IMG/VR virus record: IMGVR_UViG_2703719355_000006 | Span: 1 to 6,118 of that record | Reading direction: 5' to 3' (one strand) | DNA: 6,118 bases | Source: a virus | Lineage: Duplodnaviria > Heunggongvirae > Uroviricota > Caudoviricetes | Shown: piece after piece, positions 4,290 through 4,631 of the stretch | How positions within the stretch are numbered: the stretch's first letter is position 1 | How the letters are laid out: every line of letters starts with the position of its first letter | Translations under genes and position numbers: made by a program | The notes under the pieces: model-generated | What the model was told of the DNA's origin: nothing | What the model saw: the letters and a program-made list of their open reading frames with translations, nothing else | The model's database searches: none

Positions 4290-4631
4290 TCATCCGAAGA
4301 AGCAGCAATACGGGTCAGCACGCACAAGCTCAAGCGCATCAGTCAGCGAAAGTTCAGTACTGTACTGATGCCATTTCATATCCTTCCGCATCCAATAGAT
4401 TTTCCATCTATCCAGAGAACGTATGTACTTGATTCTTGCTGATGGCAGGATGTTTGTTTCACCTGGGTTGCCCTGCCACACGGGGCGCTGTTCGCCGATA
4501 TCTATCGTTTGGTCATTGATGCTATAAACAATATCCAGTTCATTGCGGATATGTTCAGGCGGCCTTATGCTTTCAATGAATTGGTGAACTTCTTTTTTGA
4601 CCGCTTGATATTCAAGGTCAGTGAACGCCAT
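4290..4631 (-). CDS. hypothetical protein (113 aa), first gene downstream of cI
   Basis: Complete ORF; ATG (4631-4629) preceded by GAGGAGG with a 4-nt spacer; 60-bp gap after the cI stop. Product has an aromatic/basic motif WKIYWMRKDMKWHQY and C-terminal PYCCFFG; family not identified. GC content near that of cI, unlike the kinase block. Confidence 0.7.
   Translation of the reverse strand: MAFTDLEYQAVKKEVHQFIESIRPPEHIRNELDIVYSINDQTIDIGEQRPVWQGNPGETNILPSARIKYIRSLDRWKIYWMRKDMKWHQYSTELSLTDALELVRADPYCCFFG

Follow-up and report, generated by a model that had tools for sequence, protein, structure and literature searches.

A mobile one-gene module of the DUF3024 family behind cI in a Shiga-toxin phage immunity operon, a candidate exclusion or defence factor

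The window analysed here, a DNA stretch of 6,118 nucleotides (nt) comprising positions 1 to 6,118 of the IMG/VR virus record IMGVR_UViG_2703719355_000006, is the immunity region of a 933W-type Shiga-toxin (Stx) phage and is collinear with 933W at 97-100% identity. The open reading frame (ORF) at 4290..4631 on the minus strand, directly behind the repressor gene cI, is a genuine protein-coding gene of the family DUF3024. Comparison with phages, prophages, plasmids and chromosomes revealed that this gene is a self-sufficient, mobile, one-gene module which assorts freely with varied repressors upstream and varied cargos downstream. As its function, we tentatively rank first that of a stand-alone exclusion or defence factor expressed in the lysogen. 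The gene itself is not a new finding: records annotate it, it has a family and a place among the defence candidates, and its expression in lysogens has been published. Added here are its independence from the neighbouring kinase gene and from any one repressor, the occurrence of a family member in an integron cassette, a decapitated terminator behind it, and the identification of the repeats flanking it as fossil cI ends acting as linkers.

Results and discussion

The ORF 4290..4631 is a DUF3024 gene

The ORF starts with ATG and encodes a protein of 113 amino acids (aa), MAFTDLEYQAVKKEVHQFIESIRPPEHIRNELDIVYSINDQTIDIGEQRPVWQGNPGETNILPSARIKYIRSLDRWKIYWMRKDMKWHQYSTELSLTDALELVRADPYCCFFG. Its start codon is preceded at a distance of 4 nt by the Shine-Dalgarno sequence GAGGAGG (4636..4642, minus strand, read from the sequence), and homologous loci carry AAGGAGG or GAGGAGG at the equivalent spot. 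The same start is backed by the M-A-F N-terminus found throughout the family. A preliminary description of the window, made from its sequence, had pointed out the 113-aa ORF, an aromatic and basic motif and a CCFFG end, all of which are present; the motif WKIYWMRKDMKWHQY comprises residues 76-90 and CCFFG residues 109-113. Its statement that these features are unassigned is refuted. The search against families of the DUF type that it had suggested gave a full-length match to Pfam DUF3024 (PF11225) with E = 2.2e-31 and 108.8 bits against a gathering cut-off of 24.9, aligning residues 4-113 with profile positions 2-112 of 112. Further matches were obtained to PHROG 3467 (E 3e-66), a group listed with function unknown, and to the PADLOC model PDC-S43 (E 2.2e-42; residues 1-113 aligned with model positions 1-115 of 115), and phage records also annotate the gene as DUF3024. 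A search of NCBIfam with the protein yielded no family, and the literature searched contained no mention of DUF3024 by name.

Clustering of the family gives 2,846 groups at 90% identity and 1,344 at 50%. Ratios of nonsynonymous to synonymous substitution rates (dN/dS) between phage and enterobacterial copies range from 0.04 to 0.28, which points to purifying selection. Because of the profile match, the size of the family and these ratios, a chance ORF can be dismissed. All hallmarks of the family are present, namely the M-A-F start, R-P-P, the hairpin W..YW.R....W..Y and the end C-F-[FW]-G, and the best-conserved parts are the motif at residues 76-90 and the C-terminal C-F-F-G. In an alignment of 55 diverse DUF3024 sequences, W76, W80, R82, W87 and F111 are invariant, and Y79, Y90, C110 and G113 are kept in at least 90%.

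The protein is 97% identical to L0084 of 933W and to vb_24B_13c of phi24B, and 97-99% identical across the copies in Stx phages; gp24 of Salmonella phage SE1 shares 87% identity with it. Three amino-acid differences separate it from its 933W counterpart (nucleotide identity 98.3%). L0084, vb_24B_13c and SE1 gp24 are the same gene in the same place after cI, and nothing substantial differs between them.

The gene is transcribed with cI and its orthologue is made in stable lysogens

On the minus strand of the window, cI is followed by the DUF3024 gene, a RuvC-like gene, the kinase gene stk, a 54-aa ORF and a terminator, with N further on; cro and cII are located on the plus strand. The DUF3024 gene thus directly follows cI in the pRM/pRE operon, whose order is cI - DUF3024 - RuvC-like - stk - 54-aa ORF - tM. 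The repressor gene (4692..5399, minus strand) encodes a protein with HTH_3 and Peptidase_S24 domains that is 100% identical to 933W cI. Promoter pRM (pM) is predicted at 5407..5434 on the minus strand from collinearity with the 933W annotation (offset 1175), and the region 5400-5470 shows 97% identity to 933W. The intrinsic terminator tM (tRM) of the pRM transcript is located at 2534..2555 on the minus strand. The records of both 933W and phi24B annotate pRM before cI and tM/tRM after the 54-aa ORF. Only 60 nt separate cI from the DUF3024 gene; a terminator scan of the window found no terminator-like site between the two and a single minus-strand terminator for the operon, at 2555-2534. A promoter of its own was considered for the DUF3024 gene and rejected, the promoter-like matches being at chance expectation. 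Two antisense ORFs on the plus strand, 4509-4958 (149 aa) and 4423-4527 (34 aa), overlap the DUF3024 gene and the end of cI; they show no sign of being genes, a family-library scan having been made for neither.

The uninterrupted order from pRM to tM agrees with the proposal of the preliminary description that the gene is expressed in the lysogen, and such expression has been published for the 97%-identical phi24B gene. In a study of phi24B by two-dimensional polyacrylamide gel electrophoresis and quantitative PCR (Riley et al.), only P2 and P3 of six identified phage proteins were limited to stable lysogens; their genes lie behind cI and lack a promoter of their own, and their transcript levels exceed that of cI (PMC3342100). 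The corresponding genes were later named vb_24B_13c and res, and their RNA, like that of cI and stk, does not rise on induction (Veses-Garcia et al., PMC4651098). Stable lysogens therefore produce the near-identical phi24B orthologue, and its expression resembles that of cI. E. coli strains that carry the gene make the DUF3024 protein constitutively from the repressor operon of their Stx prophage.

The gene is independent of the repressor type and of the kinase

In phages and prophages of Enterobacterales, the DUF3024 gene lies immediately 3′ of the repressor gene and in the same orientation. The repressors concerned are of at least six types, namely 933W-type, lambda-type, SE1-type, two further S24 repressors (loci L146 and L150) and, in Yersinia, a repressor of 137 aa. 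The same place behind the repressor is occupied in a Morganella phage by a copy with only 33% identity. Whereas the SE1 repressor and 933W cI share only a 33-residue similarity, the DUF3024 proteins encoded behind them are the 87%-identical pair mentioned above. Exceptions to the adjacency with cI are the end of a Rahnella prophage (L161 4089-5342), where the gene stands beside two DinI genes and tail-fibre genes, and a chromosomal site in Serratia.

Downstream, at least eight different cargos follow the gene across contexts, including RuvC-like/stk, a pair of 162 and 206 aa, ParA-like ATPases, an AAA_15 ATPase with a DNA methylase, and several unknown ORFs. In record LC616041, a 933W-type cI and the DUF3024 gene are followed by a 285-aa NYN protein instead of stk. 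Among phage records, 39 carry Stk (at least 99% identity), most of them in a 100% identical form, and about 90 carry the DUF3024 gene (at least 95% identity). Both the NYN cargo in the place of stk and these counts bear out the earlier suggestion of a function independent of the kinase. The survey of genomic contexts that had been proposed along with it gave a divided answer: the gene is very often next to cI, yet not always, and it is not tied to the kinase.

The ParA-like ATPases (340-370 aa) are found as cargos between cI and N either behind the DUF3024 gene or directly behind cI (SE1 L082 3981-5054; L151 1729-2784; L184; L186; L237). They were considered as a recurrent partner and rejected, since the two ParA-like proteins share only 27% identity, against 63% for their DUF3024 genes, and since ParA-like cargo also occurs without DUF3024. 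As a separate observation on the kinase, a protein from SPbeta-like Bacillus phages shares 39.5% identity with Stk across 95% of its length.

The family is widespread, mobile and without a fixed partner

Confirmed relatives of the DUF3024 protein were found in 462 species-representative genomes, mostly of Gamma- and Betaproteobacteria, and also of Trueperaceae, Bacillota and others. Plasmids of Vibrio, Rhodococcus, Mycobacterium, Bradyrhizobium and Polaromonas carry the gene, as do 71 of 2.9 million viral contigs. In E. coli, it is present in 227 of 5,426 complete genomes (~4%), among them many O157:H7 and other Shiga-toxin strains. Most family members lie outside prophage immunity regions (in integron cassettes, on plasmids, in chromosomal islands). 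In Enterobacterales, the gene is mostly prophage-borne, in slots that are used by defence genes.

No conserved neighbour was detected in 80 genome loci, where the biggest neighbour cluster had 4 members and no Pfam family occurred more than three times. Direct neighbours in these loci include HsdR (2 cases, 2 of 74 upstream neighbours of family members), YoeB (3), MazF, AbiEi/AbiEii (3), integrases and one transposase, besides genes for GNAT and glyoxalase proteins and ordinary genes. The same loci gave no conserved same-strand partner, as a type II toxin-antitoxin system would require. A role as antitoxin of YoeB was also rejected: YoeB is encoded on the opposite strand, in ORFs (191 aa) long enough to include an antitoxin of their own. 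Nearly all of the best 150 family representatives are single-domain proteins of 110-117 aa. Fusions are rare, with single cases involving an XRE-type helix-turn-helix (HTH) domain (P0135) or DUF6933, and most N-terminal extensions contain no Pfam domain.

In Vibrio campbellii (L164), the DUF3024 ORF 4001-4345 lies between attC-type repeats at 3797-3941 and 4361-4505. These belong to a chromosomal integron array in which 11 attC-type repeats, each ~130 nt long, follow one another at intervals of 470-980 bp (NZ_CP050465.1, 1292-7943), which places this family member in an integron cassette, a description that does not apply to the window copy. The replicon is filed in PLSDB as a 2-Mb plasmid and is presumably a second chromosome. 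We regard DUF3024 as a stand-alone module because of the missing conserved neighbour, the single-domain proteins, the integron cassette and the varied contexts.

Some clades show closer associations. In Actinobacteria, a Cys-rich module of ~190 aa (…PCRRRP.NRRC.GR…W.C..CGD.G…), without a Pfam match, is fused to DUF3024 or encoded 4 nt upstream of it, as on plasmids of M. avium (L286 2418-3339) and Rhodococcus opacus (L287 2305-3288); the fused and the separate version are 49% identical. In Polaromonas (L288 2378-3348), the start of DUF3024 and a gene for a TPMT-type methyltransferase have 4 nt in common. Both may be clade-specific partners.

Fossil cI ends flank the gene

The DUF3024 gene is bracketed by an imperfect direct repeat with cores at 4641-4655 and 4270-4284; the 15-nt core has 2 matches in the window versus 0.09 expected. 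Read in frame, the 60-nt spacer after the cI stop codon translates to LHRHIAGNQWPEETFG followed by a stop, and the sequence 2 nt past the stop codon of the DUF3024 gene reads EETFG-stop. The linker sequence CAG TGG CCT GAA GAG ACG TTT GGG TGA encodes QWPEETFG-stop, which are the last codons of lambda-type cI. The upstream copy (4641..4691, minus strand), recognised by its translation and a 19-mer match, is thus a fossil 3′ end of other cI alleles, and the downstream copy GAAGAGACGTTTGGATGA (EETFG-stop) occupies 4270..4287 on the minus strand. The repeat also flanks DUF3024 genes in other contexts and is absent elsewhere in those loci.

A scan of viral contigs with TGAAGAGACGTTTGGRTRA detected this sequence in more than 120 contigs, most of them without DUF3024. 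Among 82 occurrences of the linker 19-mer in viral contigs, 47 are the true end of a lambda-type cI (…KVIASQWPEETFG-stop), 17 are fossils just past the stop codon of a 933W-type cI, and 5 follow the stop codon of DUF3024. Beyond the linker, these contigs hold more than 20 alternative cargos, with matches to BstA (E 1e-123), PD-Lambda-2 A and B, PD-T4-9_C, PDC-S13, PDC-S05, NYN, DUF3800, HigB and ParA-like ATPases. These sequence comparisons argue that the last cI codons form a shared recombination linker and that DUF3024 is one cargo with a copy of it on each side. In L168, the DUF3024 gene lies 7 nt behind the stop codon of a genuine lambda-type cI; given this arrangement, that of the window is best read as the outcome of a later swap of the cI allele which left the old 3′ end in place.

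The interval between cI and N has been described as a "hotspot of mosaic diversity", with rexAB in lambda and bstA in BTP1 (Owen et al., PMC8585504). The adjacency of DUF3024 and cI is largely explained by a recombination linker sitting at this known hot spot, and a specific link to cI is accordingly weaker than the position had suggested. The arrangement of linkers and fossils provides a concrete view of how the slot between cI and N gathers defence genes. An RNA structure or ribozyme-like element was considered for the flanking repeat and rejected, as the upstream copies fold like shuffled sequences and the repeat is a cI coding end.

Outside the cI-adjacent setting, DUF3024 adjoins DinI-family genes in L149 (323-1346). 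The genes of this locus and of the Rahnella prophage L161 are flanked by linker-like sequence, as if the entire cassette had moved. A degraded gene of Sakai-type phages (L083 3501-3802; L166, L167, L179, L236) also lies behind the linker; it has the start MEFNGHEYQAV… and 83% identity in two pieces. In the VT2-Sakai record, cI is likewise annotated as two pieces.

The kinase block was probably added behind an older DUF3024 gene

The guanine-cytosine (GC) content of the DUF3024 ORF is 45.6% and thus close to that of cI (45.5%), unlike that of the RuvC-like gene (34.8%), stk (35.4%) and the 54-aa ORF (37.6%). The low-GC block begins with the RuvC-like gene (3761..4222, minus strand; 153 aa; L0083 of 933W and res of phi24B), which matches PHROG 3875 with E 8e-91 and Pfam RuvC with E 0.04 only. 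It overlaps by 7 nt with stk (2721..3767, minus strand), which encodes a eukaryote-like protein kinase (Pkinase E 2e-46; PADLOC models PD-T4-6 and mad6). The last gene of the operon is the 54-aa ORF (2554..2718, minus strand; L0081 of 933W), identified by annotation and by a match to PHROG 4063 (E 2.5e-39). Nucleotide identity to 933W is 99.7-100% in the low-GC block (100% for the RuvC-like gene), 98.3% in the DUF3024 gene and 99.2% in cI.

The hairpin GGTCGCAGAGATGCGGCC (4247..4264, minus strand) is held by a 73-nt spacer that, folded against shuffled sequences, gave z = -2.68, with 1 of 200 shuffles as stable. The same hairpin followed by TTTTT occurs in L178, L186 and L233, and a related hairpin in L184, L192 and L229; in these other contexts, hairpin and T-run form a terminator that closes the repressor operon right after cI. 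In the window, the T-run is lost exactly where the low-GC RuvC-like/stk block begins and replaces it, and because of the missing T-run the terminator scan did not call this site.

The contrast in GC content, the lost T-run and the alternative cargos behind identical cI and DUF3024 genes support the view that RuvC-like, stk and L0081 were inserted behind an older DUF3024 gene, and the insertion would have turned a terminator into read-through. Two earlier suggestions are thereby upheld: that the gene resembles the phage backbone rather than the kinase block in GC content, and that it is the older resident of the two, for which the NYN cargo found instead of stk speaks as well. The remaining hairpin might still affect mRNA stability or processing, which may have a bearing on the published finding that transcript levels exceed that of cI.

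A predicted sandwich fold without known relatives

An AlphaFold2 model built with the 55-sequence alignment reached a pLDDT of 91.6 and a pTM of 0.81. It predicts a helix (5-22), five antiparallel strands (33-39, 42-50, 59-70, 75-81, 87-93) and a second helix (96-105), with the conserved motif forming the hairpin of strands 4 and 5. Foldseek searches of this model against PDB and viral models gave nothing at E <= 0.001, and sequence searches of PDB with the single sequence and with a profile gave chance-level matches only (AvrPto, E 0.075; Pol gamma B, E 1.2). Two-layer alpha-beta sandwiches of the PsiB, CapZ or frataxin type resemble DUF3024 in fold class only; sequence identities are 5-13%, and neither Foldseek nor the PDB profile search gave a significant match. 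No catalytic motif was recognised in the protein, and neither sequence nor fold revealed a relative of known function; as the sequence, profile and Foldseek searches came back empty, the function is not readable from homology. The net charge was considered as a hint of DNA mimicry or nucleic-acid binding and rejected, since the family median is neutral and isoelectric points range from 4.5 to 9.8.

Proposed function and alternatives

A stand-alone exclusion or defence factor is ranked first, as a tentative choice, because of the slot, the company that the gene keeps there, the embedding that defines PDC-S43, the restriction-modification (R-M), Abi, toxin-antitoxin and integron contexts, and the constitutive expression. 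Like other genes of this slot, the window gene lies between cI and N, is co-oriented with cI and is not separated from it by a terminator. Lambda rexAB and BTP1 bstA occupy the same slot in the orientation of cI, are lysogen-expressed and presumably use the promoter of cI (PMC8585504). Expression in the stable lysogen, typical of such exclusion genes, has for DUF3024 been reported of the 97%-identical phi24B gene (PMC3342100, PMC4651098), and homologues of BstA and PD-Lambda-2 are found at the same linker site in other viral contigs. In contrast to rexAB and bstA, DUF3024 shows no likeness to them in sequence or fold, is much smaller and lacks a membrane or nuclease-like domain. The kinase Stk of 933W, of the PD-T4-6 type, is encoded on the same transcript, is likewise expressed in lysogens and is cited in PMC3681748 as excluding HK97. 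Its history is independent of that of DUF3024, as the GC content differs and Stk is absent from most phage records with DUF3024.

PDC-S43, matched by the protein over the full length of the model, consists of one candidate gene, which agrees with the stand-alone behaviour of DUF3024. The PDC set comprises 145 candidates which were chosen as embedded in BREX, DISARM or type I R-M loci and are candidates only according to their authors (bioRxiv 10.1101/2024.01.29.577857); the window copy lies instead in a prophage immunity operon. One genome inventory, that of an O157:H7 strain, lists PDC-S43 adjoining PD-T4-6, a pairing that matches what the present operon would yield.

Mechanistically, such a factor would act alone, as a small soluble sandwich of a helix, a five-stranded sheet and a helix that in the model has no catalytic or membrane domain. 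Its binding surface would be the hairpin with the Trp, Tyr and Arg residues (W76, Y79, W80, R82, W87, Y90) together with the C-F-[FW]-G tail. By this surface the protein, possibly as a modulator of defence, might bind a conserved component required by a superinfecting phage, in parallel to the other occupants of the slot, lambda rexAB, BstA, PD-Lambda-2 and Stk. More speculative, and in our view doubtful, is the wider proposal that DUF3024 is a one-protein anti-phage (or induction-modulating) factor of a new kind, with a fold lacking characterised relatives, that acts purely by binding a conserved host or phage component through its Trp-Arg hairpin, and that the cI-end linker is a general site for stacking and swapping defence genes. 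If DUF3024 excludes phages, this bears on phage therapy and biocontrol of enterohaemorrhagic E. coli and on the ecology of Stx phages; a role in tuning induction would bear on toxin release.

Several observations weigh against a defence role, for which DUF3024/PDC-S43 is a candidate on the grounds of position and company. The position at the hot spot is weak evidence, because any cargo would end up there through the linker alone. The protein, which is very small, lacks an effector domain, and on chromosomes many of the adjoining genes are of an ordinary metabolic kind. The VT2-Sakai-type phages (51 of 144 phage records) retain a frameshifted copy, and the gene is therefore dispensable for the phage life cycle. 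Copies from Enterobacterales and from groups as distant as Trueperaceae and Bacillota remain 35-47% identical, and about 10 residues are invariant; conservation of this kind across phyla is unusual for arms-race proteins and would be just as compatible with a housekeeping-like or physiological ligand.

This conservation leads to the strongest competitor, a general accessory protein outside phage biology, such as a binder of small molecules or nucleic acids or a minimal enzyme that aids the host, for which the site behind cI would be a convenient and highly expressed landing spot. We consider it possible, if somewhat doubtful. It would account for the 462 species genomes, the several plasmids and the integron cassette, for the invariant charged and aromatic residues and the one near-invariant Cys, for the GNAT, glyoxalase and TPMT-type methyltransferase neighbours, and for the small number of viral contigs with the gene (just 71 of 2.9 million). 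It is harder to reconcile with the lack of a catalytic signature and of a fold relative among enzymes or ligand binders, with R-M, Abi, toxin-antitoxin and mobile genes nearby in excess of what is expected for a metabolic gene, and with the prophage location in defence-gene slots that prevails in Enterobacterales. Unlikely in comparison is a modulator of lysogeny or induction whose target would be the repressor circuit or the SOS machinery; it could, for instance, bind RecA or cI and so adjust spontaneous induction, much as RecA is tuned by PsiB and DinI. The co-oriented place directly after at least six different repressors, the cI-like expression pattern, the DinI genes next to DUF3024 in the Rahnella prophage and in L149 and the one natural fusion of an XRE-type HTH to DUF3024 (P0135) are in its favour, but the linker at the hot spot explains the adjacency to cI, and an 87%-identical copy lies behind a repressor that shares just 33 similar residues with 933W cI. 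Moreover, most family members have no adjoining repressor (in genomes and on plasmids) or are located in integron cassettes, and the Sakai-type phages hold a broken copy.

Still less probable is an accessory to the downstream cargo, that is, an inhibitor, antitoxin-like guard or sensor adaptor that keeps the RuvC-like protein and Stk silent until infection. Further cargo does stand behind DUF3024 in every phage immunity region examined and is co-transcribed with it, and on actinobacterial plasmids DUF3024 is fused to, or tightly behind, the Cys-rich module. The downstream cargos are, however, mutually unrelated, and the same cargos also lie directly after cI without DUF3024 (NYN in ctx26, a 162-aa protein in ctx31, ParA-like proteins in ctx13, ctx15 and ctx23). 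The divergence of the ParA-like partners (27% identity, against 63% for their DUF3024 genes), the later addition of the kinase block indicated by GC content and hairpin remnant, and the lack of a conserved partner in the 80 genome loci also speak against it, as do the YoeB neighbours, which stand on the opposite strand in ORFs that could include their own antitoxin.

Further cargos at the linker

The linker end …WPEETFG-stop, in nucleotide form TGGCCTGAAGAGACGTTTGG, offers a cheap bioinformatic handle on further candidate cargos. Between two linker copies in L202 (7569-7640, plus strand), L232, L237 and L147 (upstream of 2672), we observed an ORF for a hydrophobic peptide of 23 residues (MREYLIVGVVTLLSVVAIVLMVA, followed by a stop). 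The ORF begins with an ATG that shares bases with the TGA of the first copy, it terminates inside the GGCCTGA of the second, and it is possibly a small membrane peptide cargo resembling a type I toxin gene.

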